Shown: positions 5,531-40,678 of the stretch, piece by piece
Layout of the letters: each line of letters starts with the position of its first letter
Numbering within the stretch: the stretch's first letter is position 1
Notes under the pieces: model-generated
The model's database searches: none
Told to the model about the DNA's origin: nothing
The model's input: the letters and a program-made list of their open reading frames with translations, nothing else
Position numbers and translations under genes: made by a program
From: a virus
Lineage: Duplodnaviria; Caudoviricetes
Direction: 5' to 3' (one strand)
Virus record (IMG/VR): IMGVR_UViG_3300046055_000010
Span: 1 to 48,184 of that record
Length of the DNA: 48,184 bases

Positions 5531-6016
5531 TTAGTCGCGCCGTTCGGCGATCATGGCGTCCACGTCAACCTTCGACGCTTCCCGAAGGTCAAGACGGGTA
5601 TCGGAGAACTCAGGCCGCCCGTTCCACGAGTGCCACCCGCCGTCGGCGTTCTCGTACAGGCTGTATTTGCTGTCACGAATCCACTCCAAAACGTCCACGT
5701 CGATGTTCTCGACGTTGTGGCCGTTGTAGAAGTGTTTCCCGCCGGGGTCGCCGATATACATGATCGGAACCCCGTCGCCGTCATCCTCGGGAACGTCGCC
5801 GCGAACAACGTCGGCGCTTTCGGCAGCATCGGCGAGTTCGATGACCTGCCAGCCGCCCACGTTCTTATGACCGATAATCCGCTTCTTGCCGCGCTCCTCC
5901 ACGAACCGGGGAACGGCAGCGCGAAGAACAAGCGGCCCGTTGCGGTGGTAGCGCTCGGTTTGGATGGTTCGGGTCTGTGCGTCGTCGGCTTCGGCTTGGG
6001 TAGGCGTTCGTGCCAT
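5531..6016 (-). CDS. MARTPT-leader cassette gene 1, hypothetical
   Basis: Start reassigned to ATG at 6016, matching the other copies; acidic protein. Confidence 0.8.
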   Translation of the reverse strand: MARTPTQAEADDAQTRTIQTERYHRNGPLVLRAAVPRFVEERGKKRIIGHKNVGGWQVIELADAAESADVVRGDVPEDDGDGVPIMYIGDPGGKHFYNGHNVENIDVDVLEWIRDSKYSLYENADGGWHSWNGRPEFSDTRLDLREASKVDVDAMIAERRD

Positions 6017-6040
6017 ATCTAAAGCCATGAGCGCTTGCAC

Positions 6041-6065
6041 CATAAGTGTAACGGTATCGTTACAC
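6041..6065 (-). promoter_or_regulatory. Cassette promoter: palindrome GTGTAACGGTATCGTTACAC (6046-6065) abutting TATA-like CTTATG
   Basis: 8-bp perfect inverted arms; CTTATG about 27 nt before ATG; layout repeated four times. Confidence 0.8.
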
Positions 6066-6107
6066 TGTTCGTTAGTAGCCGTCGATAGGCTCTATCACCG
6101 GGTTAGG

Positions 6108-6383
6108 TTAGGCTTCTTCTAACAGCATTTGAACTATTAGAGGTAGTGGCGTTTCGGTCAAATCCGATAGGGCTTCGGCATGGTACTGAAATAGAGCACC
6201 ATGCAGTATCATTACTTGTTCCTCGGTTAACCCGCTCTTGGTCGCCATGTTTACTTCCGCGTCAATTCCTGAATCGTCCGCGAGAGAACCGGTGAGAACC
6301 GCGTGCGCATCGTTCTCAGATATGAGTTTTTCAATCCCATCGTCTATGTGGTCGTCGTACTCCGTTCGCTGCTTTCCGCTCAT
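6108..6383 (-). CDS. Hypothetical protein (MSGKQRTEY...)
   Basis: Acidic C-terminal part of ORF 6108-6554; ATGA overlap with the upstream gene. Confidence 0.65.
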   Translation of the reverse strand: MSGKQRTEYDDHIDDGIEKLISENDAHAVLTGSLADDSGIDAEVNMATKSGLTEEQVMILHGALFQYHAEALSDLTETPLPLIVQMLLEEA

Positions 6384-6580
6384 GCCGTCCCCTCGTAATC
6401 CGGCGCTTCGCCTTCCGGATAGCGCTGGATGCGTGGATTCTCCACGACCGGCGTAGTGAACTTCTCGGCATGAGTTAGTTCGTGTTCGTTTCGTTCGCGC
6501 GTGGCTTCGGCTGGCGAATCGAACCAGTCGCTCGATTCGCTGCAAGCGCCGCAATACCAGCGATAAACGTAGCCGTTCAT
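6380..6580 (-). CDS. Small zinc-finger-like protein
   Basis: CGAC...HELTH; ATGA coupling on both sides. Confidence 0.7.
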   Translation of the reverse strand: MNGYVYRWYCGACSESSDWFDSPAEATRERNEHELTHAEKFTTPVVENPRIQRYPEGEAPDYEGTA

Positions 6581-6789
6581 TGTTCTCGCTCCAATCGGTA
6601 GGCGGCGTCTTCGATTCGCTCAGCTTGGCGTTCTAATCGGTCGGCGGCCTCGCTCACCTGTTCCTCCCTTTCTATCTTTAGGAGATACGTGAACAGACCG
6701 TCCCATTGCATACTCAGTTCCGTCTTGAGTTGGTTCATTTCCTCGAAAACTTCGGGGTCGGTCGGGATGCGCTTGAGGTCGTCGCTCAT
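6577..6789 (-). CDS. Small protein, possibly ribbon-helix-helix DNA-binding
   Basis: MSDDLKRIPTDPEVFEEMNQLK...WDGLFTYLL pattern; ATGA overlaps. Confidence 0.55.
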   Translation of the reverse strand: MSDDLKRIPTDPEVFEEMNQLKTELSMQWDGLFTYLLKIEREEQVSEAADRLERQAERIEDAAYRLEREQ

Positions 6790-7100
6790 TGCTTTGCTCC
6801 CGTCGCGGCGTCGCCGGAGGATTCGACCGCCAGCCGCTTCGGTAGACCGAAACGGGCGAAAAACCCAATCAGCGCAAGGGGAATACCGATCGGGGCGAGA
6901 ACGATGGTGCAGGATATAGCGACGCCAAACGCCGCTATCCCGTCCGCCGTGGAGCGCGTCATGGGATTCGCCCCGCAATCGGGACATTCATCGGCGTCCT
7001 TAGCGAGCACGCCGCCACATTCCGAACACTCCCATCCGGTCGCGTCGGTCTGTTCGTCTGCTTCGTCCGCGTCGTCGGCTTCGGTAGGCGTTCGTGCCAT
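6786..7100 (-). CDS. MARTPT-leader cassette gene 2: zinc ribbon plus transmembrane segment
   Basis: CSECGG...CPDCG then hydrophobic IAAFGVAISCTIVLAPIGIPLALIGFF. Confidence 0.8.
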   Translation of the reverse strand: MARTPTEADDADEADEQTDATGWECSECGGVLAKDADECPDCGANPMTRSTADGIAAFGVAISCTIVLAPIGIPLALIGFFARFGLPKRLAVESSGDAATGAKQ

Positions 7101-7206
7101 GGTCCGTCATACAGACCGCCGACTGATAAACCTTTGTAACACTATCGTTACGGTATGGAGCGGGCGCAAGCAGCTACTCAGCTACCCAGAAAAGAGGAAA
7201 GCCCGC

Positions 7207-7332
7207 CTACCACTCGCCGCTGCAATCGGGATTTGGACAGGCGTATCCTGTGAGTTCGCCGGGCGACGAGCCGATAGCTAACTCGGTTCGCGTCCCGCAC
7301 CGTCGGCAGTATGGCGACCCGTTTGTTGCCAT
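7207..7332 (-). CDS. 41-aa zinc-finger microprotein (not in ORF track)
   Basis: MATNGSPYCRRCGTRTELAIGSSPGELTGYACPNPDCSGEW; TTTATC about 27 nt upstream. Confidence 0.6.
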   Translation of the reverse strand: MATNGSPYCRRCGTRTELAIGSSPGELTGYACPNPDCSGEW

Positions 7333-7404
7333 ACCTGCAAGACGTGCCTGTAGTGTGATAAATGTGTCGGGATTTTGCGTCTTACCGACGTTCGACAGTC
7401 CTGT

Positions 7405-8688
7405 TCAGAACGTCCCGCTACGGTTGTTTCCTGCTGCCGAGCGACCAGCTGAACGCCCCCACGTTCCCGAGTTCTCTACGTTCTCGGCTGGCTTAGCAGC
7501 CAGCGCCAGTGAGTCTACCGCGTCGTCGTGCGTCCCGCTCGGCGGGCCGTATCTGACGTTTCCTGCTTTCGTCGTGTCATACTGATACGCTTCAAGTTCG
7601 CGTAGGATAATATCGAGTTCTTCCCCTGAGTCCGGTAGCTGTATGTCGCCGAGTTCAAGCCGCGCGCTCAGGTTCTCGATTAGGTTGTTCTTCGTCTTCC
7701 CGCCGCCGAATTTGACGTATTCCACGGTCGCGGAGCGAACAGCAGAATCGATGTTCTCGATTATCTGGTTATCCCGCGACGCATCCATACGAATGAAGGA
7801 CGGACCGTAGTTGGTGCCGACGCGCTTTACCCGGTTTTCGATTAACTGCCATGATACCCGACGAATCCGATCGAAGTGCGCCAGCTTCCCGGTCGAATCC
7901 AGAACGGAGATAGCGCTAAAGTTTTTCTGTCGGCCTAAATCGACTCCCGTGTAGTAGGGGCTGGTTCCCTGATAACTCGATAGATCGTAGGTAACGCAAT
8001 TCCGGTCCCAAACGCCGGGGAAGACCGCGCCTTCGGCTTCCGCGAATTTAGCGAGGTATTCGCGTTCAAAGACGCGCTCCGGCAGTTCGTCGCGCGCGGC
8101 GTCTATCTCATAATCAGGGACGTGCGGGTTCTGGTACGAGGTTCGCTGAAACGTCTCGATATTCGGATTCGCCCCGTCTTTGCCTCGCTCGGCGAGGTCT
8201 TGAAAGTAGTTGCGGCCCGTAGGAGTACCGATTAACAGAACGTCGCCGCCGGTATCCGTAATCGACGGCCGAATGTCCGCGCGGTAGGTTTCTCCCGAAA
8301 CGTCGCCCGCTTCATCTACCGTTATGAAATCGACTCCACGCCCCTGTAGCGATTCGGGGCGGTCGGCCGACCGGAAGGATATGCGCGACCCGTTCGGCAG
8401 TTCGATATGGCGAGGTTTCTGTCGTCGGAAATCCGCAACCATGTCGATCGACTCCAAGATTCGTTTGATCGGGAGGTATCCCAGTTCGTTCGCGTCGTCG
8501 TAGCTGGGAGAAATCCACCAAACCAGCGCTCCCGGCTGTTCAAGAGCGAAGTCGGCCGTCTCATACTGAGCCATTTCAGTTTTGCCGAAGCGCCGACCGC
8601 ACGGACAGACGCGAAAGCGAGCGGCAGATTGAATGATCGGTAGCTGTCCGGCGTGGGGAGTCCACTTCCGCCGAACCTGTTTAGGCAT
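7405..8688 (-). CDS. terL: Terminase large subunit
   Basis: Walker A GRRFGKT, Walker B ITVDEA, GTPTGRN, nuclease GVDLG and HDDAVDS. Confidence 0.95.
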   Translation of the reverse strand: MPKQVRRKWTPHAGQLPIIQSAARFRVCPCGRRFGKTEMAQYETADFALEQPGALVWWISPSYDDANELGYLPIKRILESIDMVADFRRQKPRHIELPNGSRISFRSADRPESLQGRGVDFITVDEAGDVSGETYRADIRPSITDTGGDVLLIGTPTGRNYFQDLAERGKDGANPNIETFQRTSYQNPHVPDYEIDAARDELPERVFEREYLAKFAEAEGAVFPGVWDRNCVTYDLSSYQGTSPYYTGVDLGRQKNFSAISVLDSTGKLAHFDRIRRVSWQLIENRVKRVGTNYGPSFIRMDASRDNQIIENIDSAVRSATVEYVKFGGGKTKNNLIENLSARLELGDIQLPDSGEELDIILRELEAYQYDTTKAGNVRYGPPSGTHDDAVDSLALAAKPAENVENSGTWGRSAGRSAAGNNRSGTF

Positions 8689-8760
8689 GGTTGCTGGTCA
8701 TAGACGTTCCCCAGAAAAGAGCGTATCGACGCGTGACGGCGTTCCGCGTTCGATCGGTGC

Positions 8761-8976
8761 TTACCCTTCGCCTACGCCCGGCCCTTCGTAGTGCGTCGTT
8801 CCTATGTCCGGCTTACTGTCTTTCACGGCTACGGTCGTCGCGTCTATCTCCACGTTTTCGCATCCCCGAACGAGTTCAGCGAGTTCGTAAACTATGGTTT
8901 CATGCCGTCGCTTCGCGTCGCTCTTTCCGGAACTGAACTCAAGCGATACCGTAGCTTCGGTCTTGTAGCGCGTCAT
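8761..8976 (-). CDS. Hypothetical protein (MTRYKTEA...)
   Basis: ATG at 8976 preceded by operator 8979-8995 and a T-rich TATA-like tract. Confidence 0.6.
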   Translation of the reverse strand: MTRYKTEATVSLEFSSGKSDAKRRHETIVYELAELVRGCENVEIDATTVAVKDSKPDIGTTHYEGPGVGEG

Positions 8977-9017
8977 GCGGTCCGTATGACGGACCGACCA
9001 AAAGTAAAAGTACCGGG

Positions 9018-9524
9018 CTACTCGTCGTTCTTGAGCGCTCGAAGCGCTCCTTGCAGCGCGTTCCGGTCGTCGCACTCGTCCGCCAGCCGGCGGACTTCCT
9101 GCCGGAGTTCCGTGTTGTCGTCGTTCTCTCGCTCCGTCATTTCCTCGATAACGTCCGATTCGTCCATCCGCGAAACCGCGAACTCGCCGTTGACTTCTTC
9201 GACGCGCCAGTAGGCGTGCTTGCGGTTGTTGTGCGACGCTCCGGACACCTTGACGATGTTCCCACGGTGGAGCCCGGAAACGTCGAATTTGACCCCGCCG
9301 TCGATGATCTTCTTGTCGAGCCATTCCCCATCAACGTTGTACTTCTCGTGCGTCCCCGTGATTTCCTGAGCCCACGGCTTGCAGGCTTTCTTGTTCGGAT
9401 GACGGCTAATGGCCTTCCATGACAGCCATTTGTCCGCAACGAGGTCGAAGGTCTTGTCGGGGTCGATTTCTTCGGTCTGTGCGTCGTCGGCCGCGTCGTC
9501 GGCTTGGGTAGGCGTTCGTGCCAT
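9018..9524 (-). CDS. MARTPT-leader cassette gene 3, hypothetical
   Basis: Leader MARTPTQADD; acidic; conserved promoter layout upstream. Confidence 0.8.
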   Translation of the reverse strand: MARTPTQADDAADDAQTEEIDPDKTFDLVADKWLSWKAISRHPNKKACKPWAQEITGTHEKYNVDGEWLDKKIIDGGVKFDVSGLHRGNIVKVSGASHNNRKHAYWRVEEVNGEFAVSRMDESDVIEEMTERENDDNTELRQEVRRLADECDDRNALQGALRALKNDE

Positions 9525-9548
9525 ACCTAACGCAACACGCCCCGACAT

Positions 9549-9573
9549 CATAAGTGTAACGGTTTCGTTACAC
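9549..9573 (-). promoter_or_regulatory. Cassette promoter palindrome GTGTAACGGTTTCGTTACAC plus CTTATG
   Basis: Same arms and spacing as 6046-6065, one spacer change. Confidence 0.8.
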
Positions 9574-9628
9574 GGCTGTATTCAGTCGGTCGAACCATTT
9601 ACTTCTCGGCGCTGCATTAGACCGACGT

Positions 9629-10051
9629 ATGAGTTTAGACGAATCGAATCCCGACGCGCTGTTAGAGACAGTCCGCATCAAACGGGGAGAATACGAGCAA
9701 GCCCGCGATGAAGCCGAGCGCAAGCACGCGGAACTGTTCGCGGCGCTCGATAAATACCTCAGTTCGATCGCTGCCGACGGCTCGGGAGATAACGACGGCT
9801 CCGGACGGACGCTTGCGGAGCGATTAGACCGGGTTCACGACCGTCTTACCGTCAAGACGCGCGTTCTCCGCGGCCGGAATACGGTTCGATGGGAGCAGTC
9901 GCCGCGTTCGACCGAGTACCGTGTGATTCAGGACGCGGCCGACAGGTTAGGAGTTGAACCGGAGCGCTTGGTTGAAGAACTGAACAGCAGGGACGAGAAA
10001 GCAGGATACGAACAGCCGAATAGCGACAGTAGCGACGGGTCAGACGGGTAG
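9629..10051 (+). CDS. Hypothetical protein
   Basis: Acidic 140-aa ORF divergent from cassette 3. Confidence 0.6.
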   Translation: MSLDESNPDALLETVRIKRGEYEQARDEAERKHAELFAALDKYLSSIAADGSGDNDGSGRTLAERLDRVHDRLTVKTRVLRGRNTVRWEQSPRSTEYRVIQDAADRLGVEPERLVEELNSRDEKAGYEQPNSDSSDGSDG

Positions 10052-10056
10052 CGGCG

Positions 10057-10269
10057 TCACACCAGCGTCGTACTGATTCTGTGGCCGCCGTCATCGTCGT
10101 TTTCGTCGTAGAACAGCTTAACCTCGTATTCGCGGCCGGCTTCGGACTTCATGACGAACTTTATCTCCCCCGTTTTCCGGAGTTCTTCTATATCAGCGTC
10201 GCCTACCTTAGCGCCAAGCGCAACTTTCCTTGAATGGTGGTCGCGTGGTTCGTCCGGAACGTCGCTCAC
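10057..10269 (-). CDS. Hypothetical protein
   Basis: Start overlaps the TerS stop; acidic. Confidence 0.6.
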   Translation of the reverse strand: MSDVPDEPRDHHSRKVALGAKVGDADIEELRKTGEIKFVMKSEAGREYEVKLFYDENDDDGGHRISTTLV

Positions 10270-11219
10270 TGGTCGGCCCCATCGTCGTCGGGAACCCGAC
10301 CCGTTAGCGGCTGGTTCTCGCTTGGCGGGTTGTTTTTCTCGCTCGATTCGCGCTGTTCGCGTTCTTCGGTCGTCTGTTTCGCGTCATTCGCATCGTTCGC
10401 GTCGCCCGCTCCGGAGTTATCGATCGTTTGCGATTCGACGGGGATGGGAGCGTTCTCGTCGTCGCTTTCGGCTTGTCTTTCCTGCTGAGCTTGCTGGTTG
10501 CGCTTGCGACGCGCTTCTCGGGACCGATCGGGGTGCGCGCGGCGGCCTTCATCGTCCACGACTTCGTAGCCCTCGTTCTCGTCGTCGGCTTCGCGTACCG
10601 TTTGATCGACTTCGTGTCTCTCGGTTTTGATGAAGTCGCGCGACCGCTCCAACATGAACGTCGCGGCTTGGGTATCTACGTCGTCGTCGTGGAGCGCACC
10701 TTTTACCAGCCGTTCGGTCCCGACGCCCCACGCGCGCTTGAAGCGGTTGAAAAAAGACTTGAACCTGAGTTCTTTGTCGGATAGTTCTGAATCAGGTACG
10801 TCATGAACCGCCTTTCCTCGGTCGATAGCGTCCATGAGTGTGTAGCGAGTGGTTGACAAAAGGGCCGATATGTCGCGGAGTCGAAGACCGTCTTTCGCTC
10901 CTTCGATTGCTGTTTTCTCGTTTTTGTCGTTCGTTACGAGTTTTAGCGGTGCTCCATTGTCCCGGTCGGGGCGTTCATCGGCTGGTTTGAGTTCTCCGAG
11001 AGTATGGTCGTGGAAACGGCAGGTATCCATGTAGTTGGAACACGGTTTCCCCGTTCCGTTCGTTTCGACCAAGCAAAGACGGCGAACATCGCCACGGCTA
11101 TCCTCCCGCGCTACAGGTCCGTCGTAATCGGAGGGAACGTAATCAGGAACATCGAACTCGCCCCGGTAGCCGTTCGACGTAGGCTGTTCGTCCGGTCCGT
11201 CCGTGTTTGCAGTCGCCAT
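10266..11219 (-). CDS. terS: Probable terminase small subunit
   Basis: HTH-like GLRLRDISALLSTTRYTL, then FFNRFKRA...AATFMLER pattern; upstream of TerL. Confidence 0.7.
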   Translation of the reverse strand: MATANTDGPDEQPTSNGYRGEFDVPDYVPSDYDGPVAREDSRGDVRRLCLVETNGTGKPCSNYMDTCRFHDHTLGELKPADERPDRDNGAPLKLVTNDKNEKTAIEGAKDGLRLRDISALLSTTRYTLMDAIDRGKAVHDVPDSELSDKELRFKSFFNRFKRAWGVGTERLVKGALHDDDVDTQAATFMLERSRDFIKTERHEVDQTVREADDENEGYEVVDDEGRRAHPDRSREARRKRNQQAQQERQAESDDENAPIPVESQTIDNSGAGDANDANDAKQTTEEREQRESSEKNNPPSENQPLTGRVPDDDGADQ

Positions 11220-11320
11220 ACGAGTAAGACGGACCGCGTGCTGATAGGGGTAACGGGAAGCTGAATCGAAGACGGAAGCAGCTTATCGGAGCGTTTGAAG
11301 AATCGGGCCGAACACGGACT

Positions 11321-11590
11321 ATCGCGGAGAAAAGCCGCGATTCAACCGCTTCGTCGCCCACGAAACGACGCGACCCGATTACGATGGGGGAGCAGTAGCG
11401 AACGGCGACCAGAAAGCACCGTTTGCAGCTATTGGGTCGGACGGCGTTAGCATAAGAGTATCGGCGTCCCGACGAACGATGGACGGCAGACGGCGTGCTG
11501 GTCGCTCATGAATGGATTATAGCGGAACGGACCCCCCGAAGGGAGTCCGTCGAACACGCTACCTAAGCCGTCCCATCTAAGGGACGGTTG
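11321..11590 (-). ncRNA. Candidate structured non-coding RNA upstream of terS
   Basis: Several hairpins including a C-UUCG-G loop on the minus strand; no credible long ORF. Confidence 0.35.
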
Positions 11591-11728
11591 TACCTATCGA
11601 GCGTAGATATATGAATCCCGCGGACTACGCTACACGGATACGCGCCGCTCAGGATTGTTGTTTCTCAGAAACGGGGTTTTTGTCTCATGCCCCGGTCCTT
11701 CCCAGTTCGTCTTACAGCGCGTGGAGGA

Positions 11729-12163
11729 TTAAGCCTTTCCGCGCATATAGGAGGGAACCACCGACCGGGGAACGTCTGTTCGGACGCGCTCGTAAACATC
11801 AAAGTGTTCGTCCACGGTTAGCGTCCGATCGTAGTGCGCAACCCAGTCAGATACCTCCATTTTCTCGGCTATCGCTTTGCAGCTTCTCGCATGGAAGACG
11901 TTCGCGCCGCCAGCGTCGGTTTCAGGTAGCCTGATATGGTAGCGCTCGGCGCTCGTTAGTGGAGCTTGGCCGAAGCGTCGGCTGGGAGTCGATCGGTATT
12001 CGCGCCATTCGAGCAAGCCGAGAACATCCGGCGGGACCGTCGTTTTGACCTCGATTTTGGTTCGGCGTCGGTCGTCGGATTCAGCCAGCCACGGACCCGC
12101 GACTTTTCGCGCTTCGTTCGCGCTATCCAGCCGGTCGAACTCTAAGGAGTGGGTGCGTGACAT
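11729..12163 (-). CDS. Hypothetical protein
   Basis: 144 aa, last gene of a tightly packed minus-strand run. Confidence 0.7.
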   Translation of the reverse strand: MSRTHSLEFDRLDSANEARKVAGPWLAESDDRRRTKIEVKTTVPPDVLGLLEWREYRSTPSRRFGQAPLTSAERYHIRLPETDAGGANVFHARSCKAIAEKMEVSDWVAHYDRTLTVDEHFDVYERVRTDVPRSVVPSYMRGKA

Positions 12164-12169
12164 GGCACT

Positions 12170-12514
12170 TTACTCGTCCGCTTCGGCTTCGTTCGTTTCG
12201 TCCGTGTCGTCTTCGAGCCGACGTTGCACCGAATCTACCGGTTCGTCGTCTGTTCCGACGACCGAGCGTTTCACGTCCTCCATGATTCGTTTCGAGTTGT
12301 TCCCGTCGGCGTATTCGACTATGATGGGACTAACGGTAAAGCCCGCGGGAGCCACCTCTTGAGCGCTTTCTATGGCGCGTTCATGGGCTTCCTCGGGAGA
12401 TTCCGCGGTCACTTCTACGTCTACGTTCCGTCGGATTTGCGTTGTCACGATAAACTCGTCTTCGTCGTTCTCGTCGGCTTCGCTTGGGCTGTCGTCGGTG
12501 TCGTTCTCGGTCAT
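12170..12514 (-). CDS. Hypothetical acidic protein
   Basis: Acidic; coupled to the upstream gene. Confidence 0.7.
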   Translation of the reverse strand: MTENDTDDSPSEADENDEDEFIVTTQIRRNVDVEVTAESPEEAHERAIESAQEVAPAGFTVSPIIVEYADGNNSKRIMEDVKRSVVGTDDEPVDSVQRRLEDDTDETNEAEADE

Positions 12515-13983: not shown

Positions 13984-14081
13984 ACTCGTGTGGTCCGTAT
14001 GACGGACCGATTGGGGATATAACTACCGGGAGGAAGGGGTTAGCCGGTGGTTATACAACCCATCGGTCCGTATGACACACC

Positions 14082-14411
14082 ATGGGAAACGCCCAAGCAG
14101 AACCAGAACGTGTTGACCGTGTTGAAATGGATATAGTCGTATCTGAGATAGTCGAGGAGAATTTTGACAGACATAATCTATGCGTTTGCCACGTCGAAAC
14201 TAACGAACTTGTCAATCGCATCATGGAACGTTACGATTACGACAGGAAAGAGGTAAAAGAAAGTGTGATTGAGCGGGTGAAGAATAGGAGTCACGGACCG
14301 AGGAATGTCTTCGTCAGCCGCGGAGGGAGCGGAAAAGTAGAGTTGATGGATTGGAGTCAGGAGCAGTCAACCGAGGAGCACCTATTCCCCGACGAGCAGG
14401 GTTGCCCGTAG
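14082..14411 (+). CDS. Hypothetical protein, lower GC
   Basis: TTATAC at 14051-14056 and operator 14065-14081 directly before ATG. Confidence 0.7.
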   Translation: MGNAQAEPERVDRVEMDIVVSEIVEENFDRHNLCVCHVETNELVNRIMERYDYDRKEVKESVIERVKNRSHGPRNVFVSRGGSGKVELMDWSQEQSTEEHLFPDEQGCP

Positions 14412-14508
14412 AACGGTTCATCTCCACCCGAAACGATGGGATGGGAACAGCCATTCCCGACAAGTAAGATTGCCGCGAGAGCGGTTCTAACGGCTGCTCA
14501 GATTTTGG

Positions 14509-14741: not shown

Positions 14742-14761
14742 TACATCCGCTACTTCATCCG

Positions 14762-20112: not shown

Positions 20113-20339
20113 CTGATTCGTCGCTTCCGTCGTCGCTTTCGTCGCTTTCATCGGTATCCTTGGTATCGCCCGACGGGAGCCTTTTTTGCTATACAGCAAT
20201 GGCCGTTTGGCTATAGCCCAATGGGTTCGTCGTACCAAATCTAAACGAATAGATTTATGTAACACTGGTCCGTATGACGGACCGATACGGGCGAAGCGCT
20301 GGCGAAGCGAAAGCGGAACGGACCCCGTATCAGAACGCT

Positions 20340-24762: not shown

Positions 24763-24835
24763 TTCGTCGCTATCGGAGTCCGTCGGGCTGGGTACTGCCG
24801 GTATCTATTTACCGAATCGGTCCGTATGACGGACC

Positions 24836-28258: not shown

Positions 28259-28499
28259 GCGTCACGTTGCGTCCCACGGTAGATAACACTACCCCGTCGC
28301 TTCCATCGATAGGGCTGGCGAAGGTCTAATGAATTTAGAGGCGTTACCGTCGGCTAAGGAGCGCGCGCCTGCAAAAAGGCCCGGTGTTGAAGCACCGACC
28401 CCAGCGCTCCCCGGACAAAGGAGCGATGCAAGCTACACTCGGCGGTCAGATAGTTGTATCGGCTGTTCAACACCGCGATTCGGAAGGGCGTGGAGCGCT

Positions 28500-29204
28500 A
28501 TGACGAGCGCTTCGCCGTTTCCTGAACCCGAGCGAAAAGCTCACCAAGACGCTCTTGGCGCTCGGGACTTTCAATTGCTGCTTGAAGGAGCGACGCTACT
28601 TGACGAGAAGATGCGGCTGGAATGTCGGTTTGTCTGCTTGGTTGCCGGCCGTCTTGGACTTCGTGGCGGGGAAATCTGTCATATGCATAAACGCTGGATC
28701 GACTGGGACCGCTCGATTATTCAAATCCCGTCGCACCGGGAGTGTCACAAGGGGATTGGCGGCGGACGATGCGGGTACTGCAAAGACCAAGCAGCGCAAA
28801 TGGCGGAAGCCGAGAAGCGCGACATGGCAACCAGTGAAATACTTGACTGGTACTGGAAGCCGAAGACCTCAGCGGCGGCGCGACCAGTCCCGTTCGGCTT
28901 CTCGCCACGGCTTGAAATCGTCATAGAGCGCTTCTTTAAGAAGTACGACGAGTTCCCGTACAGCCGCAAAACCGTTAACAGACGGGTCGATCGGGCCGCT
29001 GAAAAAGCGAAACGAATCGATGTGGAACGGACCTACCCCCATTCGTTGCGGGCAACGGCAGCAACCTACCACGCCAGTTACGGACTCAAAGCTATCCAAC
29101 TCCAAGCATTATTTGGTTGGGAGGAAATAGAAACCGCCCAACACTACGTTATGCTAACCGGCGAACATACTTCGCGGGCGCTAAAGGAAATCCATAGTCG
29201 CTAA
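28500..29204 (+). CDS. Tyrosine recombinase/integrase (short, catalytic domain only)
   Basis: GLRGGE (R), K in PKT, HSLR (HxxR), LFGW, catalytic Y in AQHY; Cys-rich insert CHKG...RCGYC; GGAG before ATG 28500. Confidence 0.92.
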   Translation: MTSASPFPEPERKAHQDALGARDFQLLLEGATLLDEKMRLECRFVCLVAGRLGLRGGEICHMHKRWIDWDRSIIQIPSHRECHKGIGGGRCGYCKDQAAQMAEAEKRDMATSEILDWYWKPKTSAAARPVPFGFSPRLEIVIERFFKKYDEFPYSRKTVNRRVDRAAEKAKRIDVERTYPHSLRATAATYHASYGLKAIQLQALFGWEEIETAQHYVMLTGEHTSRALKEIHSR

Positions 29205-31323: not shown

Positions 31324-31324
31324 G

Positions 31325-33237: not shown

Positions 33238-33242
33238 AGTCG

Positions 33243-36200
33243 TTAGTCGAACCCATATGAGCGTAGACCGCTGGTAAAGCCTTTGGCGGCTTCGCGCCCT
33301 TCGCGCCGGCTGTTCGCATGGACTTCTACTTTGAACTCATTTGTCGTCCCGCCGCCCGATCCGTCCGGCGCGGGGCCGCGGGGTCGGTTCGCGCTGGCGA
33401 GTTCGTCCGCGCTCAGTCCGAAGTCGTCGGCCGCGGGCATGGGAACCTTCGCCGCGCTTGCCGCCAATTGAGCGGCGTCCGCGAGTTCGTCCGTGTTAGC
33501 GACAATACCGCCCGCTATCTCTTGGACGAACGCCGGACCCGTTTCGTCCAAATCAGAAAGTGGCCCCTCTTTCGCCGGGCTGAACGGTAGCTTATCGCGG
33601 GCCTTCCCCACCACATTATCTACCGCGTCCTTAACGTCACCCACCTTATTCTTAATACCCTCCACAAACCCGCTGATTAGTGACTTCCCGGCGGATTTGA
33701 CATTCCCGAGCGGACCCTTATCTCCGGTGAGATAATCCATAACGTCCGAAGCCATGTTGGAAACTTCGTCCGTTGCATCTTCGTATAATGACTCAAACGC
33801 GCTCAGAACGTCGTCTTTCAAGTCGTTCGCCTCAGTCTTGGCGTCAGACGCCAAATTACCCAGCTTATCGACTATCTTCGACTTCATTTCATCTATCGTG
33901 TCCTTCCCATCTTCATAGAGCGATTCTACCTTCTCAATCACGTTATCCTTTAGATCGGTGGCCTTGTCCGTCGCGTCATCGACCAGCCCGCCGAAGAACT
34001 CAAGGAATTTGGATATGAACTCGGTCGTCGCGTCTTTGATAGCCGAGAACATTTCCGGGATAATGCTGTTCCCGACTATCGCATCATACATATCTTGGAA
34101 GAAACCGATCGTAGACTCAATAAGACCGTCAATAACGCCTAAGAACGTTTCTACGAAGGTGTTGACTAACGACCCGATACGGCCGAACGTGCGGTCTACG
34201 TAGCCCTTTATTTTATCCCATGCGCCTTCCCAATCGCCGGATAGAATGTCGGTAAACACATCGAACGAGGTGATAATTAGGTCTAACGCCCCATCAATGA
34301 TAGTCCCGAGAACGTCGAACACCCCCTTCGTAATCGTTTGTATCTCGTCGCCGAAGTTCTGCCACAGGAACATGAGCGTCCCGAACACGGCTTTGAACGT
34401 CGTTTTCAGGAAACTAACGAGTTCGCCGACGGACTCCATGATTTCATCGCCCCGAGTGTTCCAAATCTCCAATATCCTATCTACGGCTGGTTTGACCGCA
34501 TTTTTCCACAAGAATTTCATAACATCTTTGATGACTGATTTTACCATACCGAAGATTTCTCTGGCGGTATCAATTACCGATCGAATTTGACCCCACGCCT
34601 CTTTGATTCGGCTGGTTCCGCTGGATACGTTCGATCGCATAGAGTCCATATCGCCGCGTAGAAGCGCTTTTACCGCGTTGAATATGTCTCGCGTTATATC
34701 TTGAATACCCAAGATGTTCTCTTTCCAAGCGAGGTATAGCCCGCCGACCGCGGCGACGACTATCCCGATCGGATTGGTTAGGAGCGATAGCTTAGACCCG
34801 ACGCTACCGATGCGAAGCGCGAACGACCCGAAGCGCGCAATGATCGATCCGACTTTTGATAGGAGCGGGCCGCCGAGTTTGGACGCCAGCCGGCCGGCCG
34901 TGCTGATAATGCGTTTGATCGGTCCGGGAACGCGCCCGGAAAGGACCGATGCGAACGAGGCGAAGCGGCCACGAAGGACAGCCACCGCTTTCCCGAGAAC
35001 GCCGCGTAGCTTCGTGGCGAGACTCGTTACCTTTCCTCTCGCCGACCGGAGGCGTTTGCTTGAGGATAGGAGTATGCCCTTCAATTTCTGAAACGCGCTG
35101 TTGGCTACTCCCGCGCCGCTTTTGAGCCGGGTCGCAAACGCGCTGGCGGTATTTTTGATAGCTGGGATAAGACCGCCACGCAAAACCGGTAGGATCGATC
35201 CGGTAACGAACGTCCCAACAGAGCGTAACGCGCCGAGCGCGCGGCCGCTGATAGCAGTGGCGAATTTCAGTATCTTCGACCGGGTTGCGCCGCTCGTAAC
35301 ACCGAACGACGTTAGCGCGACGCCGAGCCCCGCTAATTTCTTCTTGTATGGGGCAAGGGCTGTCCCGACTTTCGTTAGCGCCGTCTTTACCTTCGACCCG
35401 TGTTTTTGCCATTCGTAGCTTGCTTTCGTAATCCCGGATCGAACCAGCGTAATGAGCTTGCTGATACGCCCGGCGTACAGCGTAATCGCCGCTCCAATAC
35501 CCGTCGTTACGGCTGTTTTGATTTTCTGACTATGATTGCGCCATACATTCGTTGCCTTGGTGATTAGCGTCCGCGTCGTACTAACCAGCCGCGAGTACGC
35601 GGATCGGACGCTGGCTATGAGTTTCGTCCCGTGCGTCGCCCATAGATTGCTGATTTGCGTAAGACGGGACTGGATAGCGGTACGAACCAGCGCAATTTTC
35701 GACCGGACGGCGTTTAGTGCGCCTTGGTATGCGGCCGTCGCGCGGGTTCGAAGTTGCGCCCCATGCTTGCTCCACCACTTCGATAGCGCTAACAGTTTGG
35801 ACCGCACCGCCGTCCCGATTTGCGTCAACTTCGCGCGGACGGTGTTAGCCGCCCCCTGATAGGCGTTCGATGCTTGTCCCTTGACCTTCGCCGTGTGTGA
35901 GCGCCAAATCCCCAGCGCGTCGGTTAGACGCGATTCTATGGCTGTCTGAACCCCGTTCAGCGCCGTGCGAACCGATGTAACCGCGCCCCGGTACGCTAAC
36001 CGCGCTTCGCGCATGACGCTCGCCTTGTGAGCTTGCCAAATCCCTGTTGCGTAGGATAGCGTCTTACGGATTTCCGTTGCGAGTGTCCCGACCACCGACC
36101 GGACCGCGGCGACGGCGTTCTGATATGCTGTTTTCGCTTTAGATACGATTGCGACGCCGTGGGTTTGCCACAGTTTATTTATACGATTGATTGCCGATTG

Positions 36201-38162
36201 AACCGGCTCGGGTAGAAGTGGGAATATCGCCGTGAATATCCCCATCATGCGCGACCCGAACGATCGAACGCGGGAAACCAGCGTGTTCAGCCCCGAGGAT
36301 AGTTTCGAACTGATTAGCGGCATGAAACGTTCCACGGCCACTTGTCCCGTCCGCATTGCGTGCGACCACATACTGCTACTTTGATCTTTGAACCCGAGCA
36401 ATCGGGATAGAATCGCGCCGATACCAGCCCCGGCCGCGGTCGCCGCCGAGCGAAAGGCGTTCTGAACGTCTTCCGGCATGGGTCCAAAAATCGCGCTCCA
36501 CGTATCGGTTAGGAGTATCGCCAGCGAGTCGAACAGTTGCGAAAGACCGTTAATTCCCACCTTCGCCCCCGCCTTCGCTTCCGAAAATGCGTAAGATAGG
36601 TGTTCCCGGAACTTCGGTCCGTTCCCCGCCAAGAGCGCGTTCCACGCCGTCGAAGCCGAGCGAATCGATTCGCGTACCCATGTTAGCGCGCCGCCAATAT
36701 CCTCGCTCAGGATATACGACGCCATGCCTTTCCATCCCGATCGGAACGCATCAACACCGCGACGGACGCCAGCGATTAGCCCGTTAACGGACGCACGAAC
36801 CGACGACACCGCCGAGTACGTCGCGTCTTGAACGCCGAACAGGTTTCGCTTCCACGCGACGTATAGCCCGCCGACAGCGGCCGCGACGACTCCGATCGGA
36901 CCCGCCAGCCCGACGAAAGCGCTTCCCAATCCAGATATTAGGGGCAAAGCCGGACCGATAGTTTGAACCAGCAAACCAAGAACGGGCAATAGCCCCCCGA
37001 CGACGCCCGAAACCAGCGCGACCGCGCCCGCCGCGCCGTTCGTCGCGCTGTTGAGTTCCGAAAACGCGCTAACGGCCGATGTTAGAATCTCCACCGCCGA
37101 TTTCACGTAGGGGATGAACACGCGGCCCGTTTGGATACCCACGTTCGTAACGGCGTTTCGTAGTTGCTGGATTTGCGCCGAAAGCGATTTGGTTGCTATC
37201 TCAAATTCCTCTTGCAACGAAGTGTTTTCTTTGAACGCCGACGCCGACATACCGAGCGCCTTGCGGGTGTCTTCAAGATTCTTCCCCATGTTCGTTAGCG
37301 CCATTCGGCTGAACGAACTGAGCGTTCCGCGCAATTGCTCGGCTTGTTTTCCCCCGCCCTTCATGGCTTCCGCCATGCGGAGCATGAGCTTAGTGGGGTC
37401 TTCGTCTCGCATATTGGTAAATTCCTCAGAAGTCATGTTTAGCGCGCTCGCAAGATCGCCAACTTTCTTCGGCGAAGTCATTTCTTGGGATACACGCCGA
37501 AGCCCGCGGCCGGCCATACTCGCCGATTGATACATCTCATTCATCGAACCAGCGAGCGCCGCGATTTCAGTGTTTGTCGCGCCAAGCGAGGAAAGGGACC
37601 CCGCGGATTGGAGCATATTTTCAGTAATCTCCCCCGCCGAAGTCGCCATGTTATTTGAAAGTTCATTGATAGACGATCCGAGGTTTTCGATTTTCGGGAT
37701 AGGGGTTTCGGTTAGCGTGGCGAGTTTGGCGAACGATTCGCCCGCTTCGTCGGTACTCAAATCCGTCGCCGACGCCATTTTCGCCACGGATTCTGTGAAA
37801 TTTGTAATATTTTCAGTTCCTTGAACTCCGAACCGACCAGCGGCGGCCGCGATTTTGCCGAGTTCGTTCGTCGCTATCGGGATTTCATCGGCCAAATCCC
37901 GGATTTTTTGATCCAGCCCGGCGGCCACTTCCGCGCTGGTCACTTTCTTCATTTCACGAACGGTATCGTTCCACTTCGACGCCGCGCCGACCGCCTTCGC
38001 TATTCCGTAGCCGCTCGCGGCCGCCATAGCCGCGCCCATGCCGGCGACCGCTTTCTGAAACCCGGTAATGTTACCGATTGATTGGGAAAGCGTAGAATCC
38101 AAATCCTGCGAATCGCCCGTAACCCTAACTTCCATTTCATTATCGCCACCGGCCCCAAACAT
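33243..38162 (-). CDS. Tail tape measure protein
   Basis: 1639 aa, Ala/Gly-rich; TP901-type N-terminal region; periodic Trp; PFSPAKEGPLSDL near the C-terminus. Confidence 0.95.
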   Translation of the reverse strand: MFGAGGDNEMEVRVTGDSQDLDSTLSQSIGNITGFQKAVAGMGAAMAAASGYGIAKAVGAASKWNDTVREMKKVTSAEVAAGLDQKIRDLADEIPIATNELGKIAAAAGRFGVQGTENITNFTESVAKMASATDLSTDEAGESFAKLATLTETPIPKIENLGSSINELSNNMATSAGEITENMLQSAGSLSSLGATNTEIAALAGSMNEMYQSASMAGRGLRRVSQEMTSPKKVGDLASALNMTSEEFTNMRDEDPTKLMLRMAEAMKGGGKQAEQLRGTLSSFSRMALTNMGKNLEDTRKALGMSASAFKENTSLQEEFEIATKSLSAQIQQLRNAVTNVGIQTGRVFIPYVKSAVEILTSAVSAFSELNSATNGAAGAVALVSGVVGGLLPVLGLLVQTIGPALPLISGLGSAFVGLAGPIGVVAAAVGGLYVAWKRNLFGVQDATYSAVSSVRASVNGLIAGVRRGVDAFRSGWKGMASYILSEDIGGALTWVRESIRSASTAWNALLAGNGPKFREHLSYAFSEAKAGAKVGINGLSQLFDSLAILLTDTWSAIFGPMPEDVQNAFRSAATAAGAGIGAILSRLLGFKDQSSSMWSHAMRTGQVAVERFMPLISSKLSSGLNTLVSRVRSFGSRMMGIFTAIFPLLPEPVQSAINRINKLWQTHGVAIVSKAKTAYQNAVAAVRSVVGTLATEIRKTLSYATGIWQAHKASVMREARLAYRGAVTSVRTALNGVQTAIESRLTDALGIWRSHTAKVKGQASNAYQGAANTVRAKLTQIGTAVRSKLLALSKWWSKHGAQLRTRATAAYQGALNAVRSKIALVRTAIQSRLTQISNLWATHGTKLIASVRSAYSRLVSTTRTLITKATNVWRNHSQKIKTAVTTGIGAAITLYAGRISKLITLVRSGITKASYEWQKHGSKVKTALTKVGTALAPYKKKLAGLGVALTSFGVTSGATRSKILKFATAISGRALGALRSVGTFVTGSILPVLRGGLIPAIKNTASAFATRLKSGAGVANSAFQKLKGILLSSSKRLRSARGKVTSLATKLRGVLGKAVAVLRGRFASFASVLSGRVPGPIKRIISTAGRLASKLGGPLLSKVGSIIARFGSFALRIGSVGSKLSLLTNPIGIVVAAVGGLYLAWKENILGIQDITRDIFNAVKALLRGDMDSMRSNVSSGTSRIKEAWGQIRSVIDTAREIFGMVKSVIKDVMKFLWKNAVKPAVDRILEIWNTRGDEIMESVGELVSFLKTTFKAVFGTLMFLWQNFGDEIQTITKGVFDVLGTIIDGALDLIITSFDVFTDILSGDWEGAWDKIKGYVDRTFGRIGSLVNTFVETFLGVIDGLIESTIGFFQDMYDAIVGNSIIPEMFSAIKDATTEFISKFLEFFGGLVDDATDKATDLKDNVIEKVESLYEDGKDTIDEMKSKIVDKLGNLASDAKTEANDLKDDVLSAFESLYEDATDEVSNMASDVMDYLTGDKGPLGNVKSAGKSLISGFVEGIKNKVGDVKDAVDNVVGKARDKLPFSPAKEGPLSDLDETGPAFVQEIAGGIVANTDELADAAQLAASAAKVPMPAADDFGLSADELASANRPRGPAPDGSGGGTTNEFKVEVHANSRREGREAAKGFTSGLRSYGFD

Positions 38163-38377
38163 AGGTTAGCTAACACCTACAAAGGTGTGGTAAACTCGGC
38201 GAGGAAATCGATAGGTTTTCGCGGCTATTCGCGTCATGCTTCGCGTTTCGCGCGAACACTATAATGCGTTTCCCTCCTTGCGAAGTCAATCGGTCCGTAT
38301 GACGCGCCGCTCCGTCTTACGCGCCGGTTTCGCTATTCACGTGAAAAGCAGGCCGGTAGAACGTAGCAAACAGTATA

Positions 38378-38453
38378 TTGTGGCGGTCGGAATTGAACCG
38401 ACGGTCTCGTGGTCCAAAGCCACGCGCCTATCGCCAGCATAGGCCGCGCCACT
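38378..38453 (-). tRNA. tRNA-Gln(TTG), non-canonical
   Basis: Cloverleaf: GTGGCG/CGCCAC acceptor, GCCT/AGGC D-stem, CGTGG-CTTTGGA-CCACG, GTCGG-TTCAATT-CCGAC; C8 and 1:72 mismatch; no encoded CCA. Confidence 0.8.
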
Positions 38454-38539
38454 GCAAACCGTTAGCCGCTTCGGTAGCGAGAAAGCTATCGCTTTCGGTC
38501 GAATCTTCCAGAAAGGAGGTCGGCGGTCGTTTGCCGCGC

Positions 38540-39039
38540 CTACGCTTCGGCTTGGGCGTCGATTTGCCAGCCGGTGCGCTGTTCGTATTCGACTGTCGCG
38601 CTGGTTCCGTCGCGCGCAACCTTCGCGTCCGACCCGACACGCCGAGTTTTGCCCGCCGCTCCGTCGCGCCGACATTCCATAACGACGCCGCCGCGTTTGA
38701 TCGATAGGAGCGCCCAGCGGCCGGACCCCGTGATAATCCGAACACCGCCGCGGTTCGACTTCGCAACGTAGCCGTCGCCCGTGACGCGCTCGCCGTCTTC
38801 GTTCTCGTAATCGTACCGAACGCCTTCGCCGTTCTCCACGATTCGGCGAGTTCTCGGTCTACGCTGAACTCGGGCGCGTCGGGTTCGTCGCCGACGCCTT
38901 CATACTCGTCGCAAAGGATGACGGCCATTGCATCCAGCCCGTCGCGGGCGAGGGCGTGAATAGCTTCGCGGTGTTCTTCGCCCGGAACTTCCTCAATCGA
39001 CTCCGCTTCGTCGTCGGCTTCGGTAGGCGTTCGTGCCAT
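38540..39039 (-). pseudogene. MARTPT-leader cassette gene 4, apparently frameshifted near 38842
   Basis: Acidic frame from 39039 loses its composition after DRELAE; acidic sequence continues in frame 38540-38839. Confidence 0.6.
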
Positions 39040-39063
39040 ATCTAAAGCCATGAGCGCTACCAT

Positions 39064-39088
39064 CATAAGTGTAACGGTATCGTTACAC
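39064..39088 (-). promoter_or_regulatory. Cassette promoter palindrome GTGTAACGGTATCGTTACAC plus CTTATG
   Basis: Identical to 6046-6065, same spacing to ATG. Confidence 0.8.
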
Positions 39089-39090
39089 GG

Positions 39091-39384
39091 CTATCCGACG
39101 CCTTCGACAGCGGTGGTTTCTCGGGTTTCGGACGGGTCGGGTCCGGGTTCCCAGTCGCCGGACTGTATCTTTCTGTCGAACTTTTTCAAGTTCGCTCGGT
39201 CTTTTTGATCGATACACTTCTCAGCGTCTTCCTCTAACTGCCGCTGTAGCTGATACCCCGCCCATAGGATGCGGATTTCAGGGAACATGAGACGGTAGAA
39301 GGACGTGTCGCCGATAAATCGGTAGCCCTTCTCATGGAGCCAATTGATGAAGCCCGCATTGCGGTCGAACTCGTTCAGTTTCCC
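39091..39384 (-). CDS. -1 frameshift extension of the tail assembly chaperone (lambda gpGT-like)
   Basis: Slippery G GGA AAC (39378-39384) just before the stop; -1 frame open to 39091. Confidence 0.8.
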   Translation of the reverse strand, partial: GKLNEFDRNAGFINWLHEKGYRFIGDTSFYRLMFPEIRILWAGYQLQRQLEEDAEKCIDQKDRANLKKFDRKIQSGDWEPGPDPSETRETTAVEGVG

Positions 39385-40004
39385 GGTTCTTCAAACTCTA
39401 TCTCCGCGTTCCCCTCGTTATCCATTTGCAAATCTGCCTCGATACCGCTGGCGTCGAACAGCGAGAGAATGACGTTGCGCGGGTACATCGGCCGCATGTT
39501 TTTGATTAGCGTCCCCGTGACGCGGCCCCGATCGCTAAGCTCAGATAAGTTGGGTTCGTTCAGGTGGAAGTGAATCACCTTGGCGAGGGTTTCCGGGTCG
39601 GCTTCGGTCGCCGCGCCAGCGTCGCCGAAGTAGTTCTGAACGTCGCCGTAGTTAAGCGGCGTAAAGTTGCACATCCCCACACCGGGAACCATCTTGTCGA
39701 TCGGGTTGCGGTCTGCTTCGCCGTCACGGGTTAGTCCGAAGTCTTCGGGGTTCGCATACTCCGGTTCTGGCTGTCCCTGTTCGTCCCACATCTTCGGCCC
39801 GTCGTCGCCGTTATCGTCGTGTTGGCCGCTCACATCGCGCTGGTCCTGTTTGCTCACATCCGAAGGGGTAGCGCCCGCGTTCGCCGCGTCGTCGCTCATG
39901 CCGTCGCTGGGAGCGTTCTCGTCGCCTGCATTACTTTCGTGGCTTGCGGGTGGCCCGCTGTCGTTCTCGGGTTCGCTCGGTCGCTCCGGATTTTGTTCGC
40001 TCAT
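39375..40004 (-). CDS. Tail assembly chaperone
   Basis: Between tail tube and tape measure; ends in a slippery heptamer. Confidence 0.8.
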   Translation of the reverse strand: MSEQNPERPSEPENDSGPPASHESNAGDENAPSDGMSDDAANAGATPSDVSKQDQRDVSGQHDDNGDDGPKMWDEQGQPEPEYANPEDFGLTRDGEADRNPIDKMVPGVGMCNFTPLNYGDVQNYFGDAGAATEADPETLAKVIHFHLNEPNLSELSDRGRVTGTLIKNMRPMYPRNVILSLFDASGIEADLQMDNEGNAEIEFEEPGN

Positions 40005-40113
40005 TGCAACGGTCCGTATGACGCGCCGCTCCTTATGGATACCGGCGATTGCACCGAGCGCGAAAGCTACCGCTTTGCGTCGAATGTCCCAGAAAAAGCT
40101 ATTCAGCGAGCCC

Positions 40114-40557
40114 TTACCAGTCGAAAAACTGAATGTCGAAGGAGTAGTAACATTCAGCGTTAACGTCGCTGTTCTCGTGGAAGCCCGTAATGTGACCGAA
40201 CTCGCCGTTCGCGCCGTAGATGTTTTCGCCGCCGGTCGCTTCTATCGCCCAGTTACCCGGCCCGCCTTCCCAAGAAACCGTCCAACACGGGCCGCTGTCT
40301 CGCTTCGTTTGCGTTTCTTCGCGGTCGTAGATGCGAATGGCGTCGCCGCCACCCAAATCCTCGGAAAGGAAACGATGAACGGCCTTCGCCGCGCCCGTCG
40401 CGGTCTTGTAATCGCTAATGTCGAGAACCTTGTCGGCCCAATCGATCGGGCCGGCGTTCTCGCCTTCGTCGTCGGTCGCTTCGTCGGATTCGGGGAAGAC
40501 GAACCCCCCGATATTCTCAGTCGTTTCGTCGTCGGCTTGGGTAGGCGTTCGTGCCAT
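40114..40557 (-). CDS. MARTPT-leader cassette gene 5, hypothetical
   Basis: Leader MARTPTQADD; acidic; T-tract downstream on the minus strand. Confidence 0.8.
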   Translation of the reverse strand: MARTPTQADDETTENIGGFVFPESDEATDDEGENAGPIDWADKVLDISDYKTATGAAKAVHRFLSEDLGGGDAIRIYDREETQTKRDSGPCWTVSWEGGPGNWAIEATGGENIYGANGEFGHITGFHENSDVNAECYYSFDIQFFDW

Positions 40558-40581
40558 ACCCAAAGCAATGCACCCCGACAC

Positions 40582-40606
40582 CATAAGTGTAACGGTATCG
40601 TTACAC
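40582..40606 (-). promoter_or_regulatory. Cassette promoter palindrome GTGTAACGGTATCGTTACAC plus CTTATG
   Basis: Identical to 6046-6065 and 39069-39088. Confidence 0.8.
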
Positions 40607-40678
40607 AGCTATCCGACGCCTTCGACCAGAACGCCAAAAGATGCGAGCGAGTTCCGAAAGCGTTCGCCGCTGAGCGGG

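Follow-up and report, generated by a model that had tools for sequence, protein, structure and literature searches.

Five genes in the virion module of a haloarchaeal siphovirus, all on the minus strand, begin with the same peptide, MARTPT(Q/E)A, behind a common upstream repeat. They lie in record IMGVR_UViG_3300046055_000010 (G000), the whole of which (48,184 bp) was analysed and is called the window here. We conclude that these genes are most likely self-contained morons, referred to below as cassettes, which share a head (upstream repeat plus first codons) and often a tail. Head and tail repeats probably serve as homology arms for swapping, fusing, deleting and relocating accessory genes (cargos) among a few tolerated slots. 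The sequence comparisons point to more than a shared promoter, namely to a variant of modular shuffling mediated by repeats, for which the comparative evidence is unusually direct. The initial annotation had proposed a moron- or cassette-capture system. Empty slots, replacement, relocation, homologues without the leader peptide and dissimilar bodies support the moron and cassette part of that idea, whereas 'capture system' overstates the case: neither a dedicated recombinase nor a site-specific signature turned up.

The shared head and its palindromes

The first 26 nt are identical, synonymous sites included, in the genes starting at 6016, 7100, 9524, 39039 and 40557, and none of 100 shuffled sequences reached five matches (mean 0.00). 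Four of the heads carry a palindrome, GTGTAACG-N4-CGTTACAC (opA), which abuts CTTATG and is followed by a 24-nt spacer and the ATG; TTATG begins 29 nt before the start codon. The 7100 head has a degenerate opA at 7134-7153, TTTAT at -30 and a second type of palindrome, opB, set against the ATG. T-tracts follow three of the genes (5515, 9009/9003 and 40097). On all of these points (the common start, its conservation at silent sites, the palindrome with CTTATG ahead of four genes and the T-tracts), the initial annotation was borne out.

The two palindromes mark different sets of genes. The window has 5 sites with GTAAC-N6-GT(T/A)AC (shuffle mean 0.09, maximum 2, 200 shuffles), the relative G001 has 4, the related contig L023 has 1 and Halorubrum virus Hardycor1 has none, and the motif always stands before a MARTPT gene; its 6-nt spacer is mostly uniform within one genome. 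By comparison, opB is present in about 14 copies in the window, mostly intergenic and often touching an ATG. It precedes the core genes downstream of three slots, with copies before the putative chaperone (40011-40027), the tape measure gene (38292-38308) and the gene preceding TerL (8979-8995). With opA only ahead of MARTPT genes and opB mostly elsewhere, the MARTPT genes would constitute a separate regulon. The operator, TATA and leaderless-start roles are putative; by the spacing in virus HF2 (TATA from -26), a transcript start 0-3 nt before the ATG is predicted. No regulator for opA or opB was found. The open reading frame (ORF) at 6577-6789, directly after the 7100 gene, gave a weak CopG/ribbon-helix-helix-like lead (atlas score 0.89, a lead only) and may be considered a candidate. 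Elsewhere, two inverted opB sites between two small ORFs form a divergent, switch-like promoter pair (13991-14082).

Slot occupancy among relatives

The window encodes terminase, portal, Mu-F, capsid, neck, tape-measure, integrase, AAA and vWA genes. Its nearest isolate is Hardycor1 (43.5% identity in TerL and 37.8% in the putative tail tube), and the public runs matching it best are halite metagenomes, with no RNA run listed among the matches. We compared it with G001 (49,902 bp, near-complete, 76-92% at the nucleotide level in aligned blocks), with L023 (6.2 kb) and with short contigs assembled from five halite runs of three studies, X1, X2 and X3 among them. True heads among viral records were confined to G001 and L023: scanning viral contigs with the head pattern returned 13 stretches, of which 6, on these two contigs, were true heads and 7 were chance. 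The exact operator-plus-TATA pattern of the window matched nothing elsewhere in the viral contigs, and a relaxed form matched 6 stretches, 5 in the same two contigs and 1 without similarity to the window. A metagenome match was judged by sequence and context to be chance, and the one genome match, in a bacterial metagenome-assembled genome, was taken as chance as well. Protein-led scans with the tube, portal, 9524 cargo and chaperone found no carriers beyond the same contigs.

Three slots are seen both empty and filled, namely chaperone/tape measure, tube/chaperone and post-TerL. At the post-TerL slot, the window and an X3 contig (6215-7553) have no cassette, and G001 has a head plus cargo. 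X2 contigs show a TerL-to-head or head-to-7374 joint (side 34), and a second strain in X1 shows such a joint (side 71) at a depth of 19.7 beside the window type at 26.5, placing empty and filled alleles within one sample. The tube/chaperone cassette of the window is cleanly skipped in an X2 contig (40063-40635, 573 nt, with 181-nt sides and 3 shared letters). G001 has at this position a DnaJ-domain gene followed by a head and a 272-aa cargo, and X3 carries the G001-type joint. The chaperone/tRNA/tape-measure slot is empty in G001, with about 30 unrelated nt at the site, holds a longer form in X2 and has the same body in X3. Empty sites keep neither palindrome nor head. In Hardycor1, two of the counterpart gaps measure 248 nt and 27 nt, and at the third the genes overlap.

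Two cargos changed slot between strains. The body of the window 39039 gene corresponds to the last 150 residues of the 272-aa tube/chaperone cargo of G001 (92% and 88% amino acid identity). The post-TerL cargo of G001 matches the body of the second of two L023 pre-portal genes (72% over 53 aa) and also bears the MMEANQRAK start of the first. Other positions are steadier: the TerS/TerL slot holds the same cargo in the window, G001, X2 and X3, the 7100 gene keeps its position in G001, where its start reads MGRTPTEA, and at the pre-portal slot G001 shares the cargo of the window (74% of the body) and L023 has two other genes. Comparison across relatives, as proposed in the initial annotation, thus revealed empty, replaced and relocated cargos rather than the same five genes at unchanging positions. 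The DnaJ-domain gene that G001 carries after its tail tube (L015:16964-17587) has an opB-type promoter and a head-like start, MARDATGA. The tyrosine integrase gene of the window and the adjoining tail-spike region are without counterpart in G001.

The leader appears to have been grafted onto the cargo bodies, since distant homologues of three cargos lack it. It is missing from 21 of 22 homologues of the 9524 body, with close cluster members having it with Q or E at residue 7, and from all 4 non-self homologues of the 40557 body. Among 3 homologues of the 6016 body, the leader is present in the two close ones (in one of them with K7) and absent from the distant one. Nor, by sequence, are the cargos ordinary paralogues along their whole length: they show no clear pairwise sequence similarity, the best body-against-body match being 30% over 66 aa (E 0.004-0.008, 14-sequence set). 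The soluble cargos might conceivably be related at the level of fold.

A second shared arm, missed by the initial annotation, lies behind several cargos and spans about 40-75 nt including the T-tract. The unrelated 39039 and 40557 bodies are followed by a common stretch of 39 nt, from the T-tract on, and the pre-portal and pre-chaperone flanks have a further 22-30 nt in common. These alignments score above all 300 shuffles. The G001 post-TerL cassette and the 9524 cassette have no shared 3' arm. The features of the window are as follows.

5455..5530 (-), 3' arm of the pre-portal cassette, with a T5 tract at 5515, extending into the region upstream of the next gene
5531..6016 (-), cargo 1, 161 aa, no family
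5991..6045 (-), pre-portal head: TATA-like box (TTATG at -29), spacer and first 26 coding nt
6046..6065 (-), opA (GTGTAACG-N4-CGTTACAC) of the pre-portal cassette, putative operator
6577..6789 (-), small ORF downstream of cargo 2, weak CopG/ribbon-helix-helix-like lead
6786..7100 (-), cargo 2, 104 aa
7075..7153 (-), hybrid head of the 7100 gene: degenerate opA, TTTAT, opB-like palindrome at 7101-7117 and 26-nt start
7374..7407 (-), post-TerL slot, empty in the window
8979..9017 (-), T-tracts at 9009 and 9003, then opB before the next gene
9018..9524 (-), cargo 3, 168 aa
9499..9573 (-), TerS/TerL head: opA, TATA-like box, spacer and 26 coding nt
38378..38453 (-), tRNA-Gln(TTG), just downstream of cassette 4, between chaperone and tape measure
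38469..38539 (-), 3' arm of cassette 4, with a 39-nt match to the 40557 tail and a 75-nt match to the L023 pre-portal tail
38540..39039 (-), cargo 4, a shortened and frameshifted form of the 272-aa G001 cargo
39014..39108 (-), chaperone/tRNA/tape-measure head, including a 19-20 nt upstream extension in common with the 40557 head
40011..40027 (-), opB before the putative chaperone
40063..40635 (-), complete cassette 5, 573 nt: head 40532-40625, cargo 40114-40557, tail 40063-40113
40114..40557 (-), cargo 5, 147 aa, weak match to Rhodobacter phage hypothetical proteins
opB examples in the window: 80-96, 8979-8995, 13992-14008, 14065-14081, 20267-20283, 24819-24835, 38292-38308 and 40011-40027

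The cargos had no Pfam match above cut-off, the 7 proteins tested had no PADLOC match, and a phage-record search with 4 cargos gave no match for 3. Cargo 2 combines a CxxC zinc-ribbon-like segment, below Pfam cut-offs, with a strongly hydrophobic one (KD19 2.37). The model of cargo 3 is beta-rich (mean pLDDT 85) with no fold match at E<=0.001, and that of cargo 5 is unusable (pLDDT 41). Relative to its homologue, the 39039 gene lacks one base near 38840, which places the end of its body at 38540; an X1 contig has the same letters at this frameshift. Cargo G+C content is 0.59-0.65, against 0.56-0.61 for core genes and 0.58 for the genome, and is thus not unusual.

The initial annotation had the five genes splitting adjacent core genes. 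They do sit between core virion genes, but the core genes on either side are not always immediate neighbours: TerL is separated from the putative TerS (a weak call, phrog_4102, E=3e-4) by two other ORFs and from the portal gene by about five, and the tRNA-Gln gene stands between chaperone and tape measure. This tRNA gene is kept in G001, where the adjoining slot is empty. The putative 'tail tube' (40679-41971) and 'chaperone' (39375-40004) are so named from synteny, with no named-family match for either. Just before the stop of the chaperone gene, G GGA AAC (39375-39385) resembles a tail-chaperone frameshift site, and a second short ORF (39091-39288) follows it.

Proposed exchange between arms and selection on the start

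The heads are mosaic. Over the span from -50 to +26, the window 6016 head differs from its slot orthologue in G001 at 15 of 76 nt and from its paralogue at 39039 at only 5. The TerS/TerL head of G001 likewise has 2 differences from the tube/chaperone head of the same genome and 6 from its window orthologue, and position -42 is G in 4/4 window heads and C in 4/4 G001 heads. Tracts shared among window genes end variably, 26-34 nt into the genes, and in other strains up to 17 residues are identical between unrelated bodies. Mosaic heads with variable tract ends have the pattern expected of conversion or crossover within the repeat. The 19-20 nt piece upstream of the 39039 head, common with the tube/chaperone head, aligns with a similar stretch ending the chaperone gene. 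Further dispersed repeats of 27-53 nt with 83-96% identity lie between distant genes of the window (10339-10391/28047-28099, 12623-12649/27629-27655 and 23182-23234/42198-42250), suggesting that intragenomic recombination may be common in this virus.

A rival account, which we regard as unlikely, is that the heads form a regulon only: a co-regulated promoter with an optimal start kept by selection, as in the HF2 repeats, with cargos turning over by illegitimate recombination. At most core promoters the opB core has changed in concert by one base, from CGTCATACG in the window to CGTCTTACG in G001, without mobility, suggesting co-evolution with a regulator. Starts of the form ATGG(C/G)ACGA recur in the unrelated virus HGTV-1 (KC292026.1, 105000-143855; 98 coding sequences, 84 with ATG starts), in 5 of 27 genes with a TATA-like box at -31 to -20 compared with 1 of 57 without. 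Whole-cassette loss, moreover, shows just 3 shared letters. Promoter selection leaves unexplained, however, the mosaic spacers common to paralogues, the identity to codon 11-17 with variable ends, the shared 3' arm and the two cargos that changed slot inside the same head and tail frame.

Selection at the nucleic-acid level nevertheless appears to act on the start. Across 9 heads, 24 of 26 coding columns are invariant, compared with 10 of 24 in the spacer and 12 of 20 in the operator. Fourfold sites in the orthologous bodies differ at 21/62, 20/58, 11/45 and 11/53, and those in tube and portal at 89/209 and 104/269. The near-invariance of the coding 26 nt, set against this variation in the bodies, points to selection on the transcript start. 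Two leads agree with such selection, namely a paired base change in the G001 orthologue of 7100, described below, and the starts of HGTV-1 genes. A long hairpin was not consistently conserved across heads (z -3.9 to +1.3), and the fold of the first 27 coding nt (a 3-bp stem) does not exceed that of synonymous shuffles; with three further upstream bases in the transcript, the GGT variant of the window heads could form a 7-bp stem. Apart from the tRNA, no Rfam family was matched. HGTV-1 genes with the box more often have a 5'-terminal stem of at least 4 bp (18/27 versus 7/57), with differing sequences in different genes (rank test on length, p=3e-6; +1.0 bp over synonymous shuffles, p=2e-4). Such a stem over the start codon is possibly general in leaderless haloviral early mRNAs; our literature search found no publication on 5' stem-loops of leaderless haloarchaeal mRNA.

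Under arm-driven exchange, a viral regulator would bind opA and so control the head, a promoter whose mRNA would be leaderless or nearly so. Homologous recombination between the repeated arms would swap, fuse and truncate cargo and keep the heads alike. Crossovers could fall anywhere in the head, codons included, such that an incoming body would be grafted in frame and expressed at once. Slots would be tolerated at transcription-unit boundaries, surviving because the downstream core genes have opB promoters of their own, and new slots would arise rarely, via microhomology, for which the 19-20 nt piece of the 39039 head and its counterpart at the end of the chaperone gene would be an example. 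The coding 26 nt may additionally be held as a favoured 5' end of the transcript.

Several points weigh against this account. Head-to-head recombination does not explain the gain or loss of whole cassettes, because the 573-nt skip shares only 3 letters and the empty G001 site only has its unrelated nucleotides; microhomology or illegitimate events are needed. Homogenised operators can result from selection alone, because opB too changed in concert at core promoters, and conversion alone would predict less conservation between genomes in the coding part of the head than is seen. Two of the five genes, 9524 and 7100, have the same cargo and slot wherever visible, and the former is without the shared tail. 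The comparison base is one near-complete relative, one 6-kb contig and short contigs, X1 may be the source sample, and contig joints beside repeats can arise from assembly. Neither recombination events nor circles or transcripts were seen; the route of recombination, the promoter activity, the regulator and the benefit of the cargos are inferred.

A more ambitious version of arm-driven exchange seems doubtful to us. Here the arms would be a purpose-built, plug-and-play accessory-gene system, an integrase-free functional analogue of the integron, in which foreign bodies are grafted in frame to a single regulated start by standard arms, shuttled between safe slots inside one population and delivered as a co-regulated, possibly virion-loaded anti-host arsenal.

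Alternatively, MARTPT(Q/E)A could be a peptide tag that loads proteins into the virion, with DNA identity a by-product of copying, as the initial annotation had also considered. T4 IPII and IPIII likewise have identical N-termini on unrelated bodies, according to the passages on these proteins in PMC9026906, and the window genes lie inside the virion module. Invariant synonymous sites nevertheless make a tag improbable, as does residue 7, which toggles between Q, E and K by one base within orthologous groups. In the G001 orthologue of 7100, the A2-to-G change comes with a silent one that keeps GGN...NCC pairing (GGC-ACGAAC-GCC to GGG-ACGAAC-CCC, one post-hoc case). A strongly hydrophobic segment of membrane-like character is present in one tagged protein, no core virion protein of the window bears the peptide, and the genes stand behind opA rather than the opB of core promoters. 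The same recombination could spread a tag, and the two readings are not mutually exclusive; capsid sorting is a possible added role, but a disfavoured one.

Site-specific capture, in which the 5-6-5 palindrome would be an integron- or att-like core used by the viral integrase, is largely refuted and very improbable: GTAAC-N6-GTTAC does resemble an inverted-arm core with a mostly uniform spacer per genome, the window encodes a tyrosine integrase (28329-29204) and one cassette abuts a tRNA gene, but each cassette has one palindrome and not two, empty sites have none, left boundaries are ragged and upstream of the palindrome, tblastn finds no match to the integrase in G001, which carries four heads, and the tRNA-Gln 3' end is not duplicated in the window, with no att-like copy near the integrase.

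Comparison with known systems

Phage morons have their own promoter and terminator, lie between structural genes and are variably present. The cassettes at 39039 and 40557 and the post-TerL slot (not 9524 or 7100) likewise represent extra genes between conserved neighbours that are absent from relatives, and the window cassettes carry TATA-like boxes and T-tracts, candidates for a promoter and terminator of their own. Unlike classical morons, which share no standard head and tail making them interchangeable, the cassettes have common arms, and their base composition is close to that of the genome.

The closest parallel is with the PeSLs of the T4-type phages RB49 and phi1. The passages on these elements in PMC2839356 and PMC4122927 describe repeated units of about 70-100 bp, comprising a promoter plus an inverted repeat, before ORFans that are present, absent or replaced between close relatives, with homologous recombination between repeats as the proposed engine. 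There are about 50 per genome, mostly in hyperplastic regions; the unit includes a terminator stem-loop and ends at the start codon, and mini-circles have been shown (PMC2839356, PMC4122927, same passages). Similarly, a 76-105 nt head with a TATA-like box stands ahead of five family-less window genes, and presence, absence and replacement of genes between relatives coincide with the repeat. In contrast to PeSLs, the window has only 4-5 heads, located in the virion module and with an archaeal TATA-type, predicted leaderless start; these share 9-17 codons and are paired with a separate 3' arm with T-tracts. In place of a sigma70 promoter with an in-unit terminator, a palindrome abuts the TATA-like box, and empty sites of MARTPT cassettes keep no chimeric repeat copy.

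Among haloarchaeal tailed viruses, HGTV-1 has TATA-plus-inverted-repeat motifs before many small ORFs, for which the passages concerned suggest PeSL-like shuffling, and report no empty or swapped slots (PMC3950731). One HGTV-1 gene shares a 15-nt start with the G001 orthologue of 7100. Its motifs, unlike the window heads, cluster in one arm, are loosely conserved and give no identical N-termini. In Hardycor1, intergenic repeats overlap starts and give identical MNANT N-termini, as described in the passages on these repeats, which offer no mechanism or strain comparison (PMC7911831). There are six such repeats, with a palindrome beside ACTTATG-like boxes and running into start codons as in the window, and two of the genes they head are inside the virion module. 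The repeat nevertheless differs in sequence (similarity to the window head is not significant, p 0.04-0.08), its TATA-like box is about 55 nt from the ATG, making the transcripts probably leadered, and it serves vWA and other non-virion genes too. Hardycor1 also has a 530-bp direct repeat (L014:21857-22916) that gives two proteins a common N-terminus, noted in the same passages of PMC7911831.

The class I/II intergenic repeats of HF2 are described, in the sections dealing with them, as haloviral promoter blocks that are proven active, have TATA from -26 and define regulons (PMC8707807), and as fixed in position across the genus (PMC8707807, PMC7230728). Three MARTPT slots, by contrast, vary between empty and filled, and the sections on HF2 mention neither cargo exchange nor shared codons (PMC8707807). 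The capsid-targeting sequence of T4 IPI, IPII and IPIII, in the passages devoted to it, has a peptide-level function with gp21 processing (PMC9026906). It resembles the common N-terminus of about 10 residues on unrelated window proteins, but conservation in the window is at the DNA level and coextensive with the promoter repeat. Integrons differ in that the MARTPT cassettes have no recombination site at empty sites or bounding each cassette, and no linked recombinase in G001.

How morons enter structural gene blocks with immediate expression is a long-standing question, for which our literature search returned only suggestions in archaeal viruses; no paper in that search, outside which most subscription papers lay, showed slots for repeat-headed cassettes standing empty or swapped within the virion module of an archaeal virus. 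This lineage is a compact test case, with defined arms, empty and filled alleles of one slot and relocated cargos. Should exchange be driven by the arms, PeSL-type modular shuffling would extend to archaea with direct comparative evidence, and the identical N-termini seen in Hardycor1 would be explained. The arms would also provide a sequence handle for co-regulated, fast-turnover viral genes, candidates for host takeover or counter-defence. The idea of shuffling has precedent in the PeSL-like motifs of HGTV-1 and the identical N-termini of Hardycor1; what is new is a head that reaches into the codons, a paired tail and slots seen directly as empty or swapped inside the virion module.

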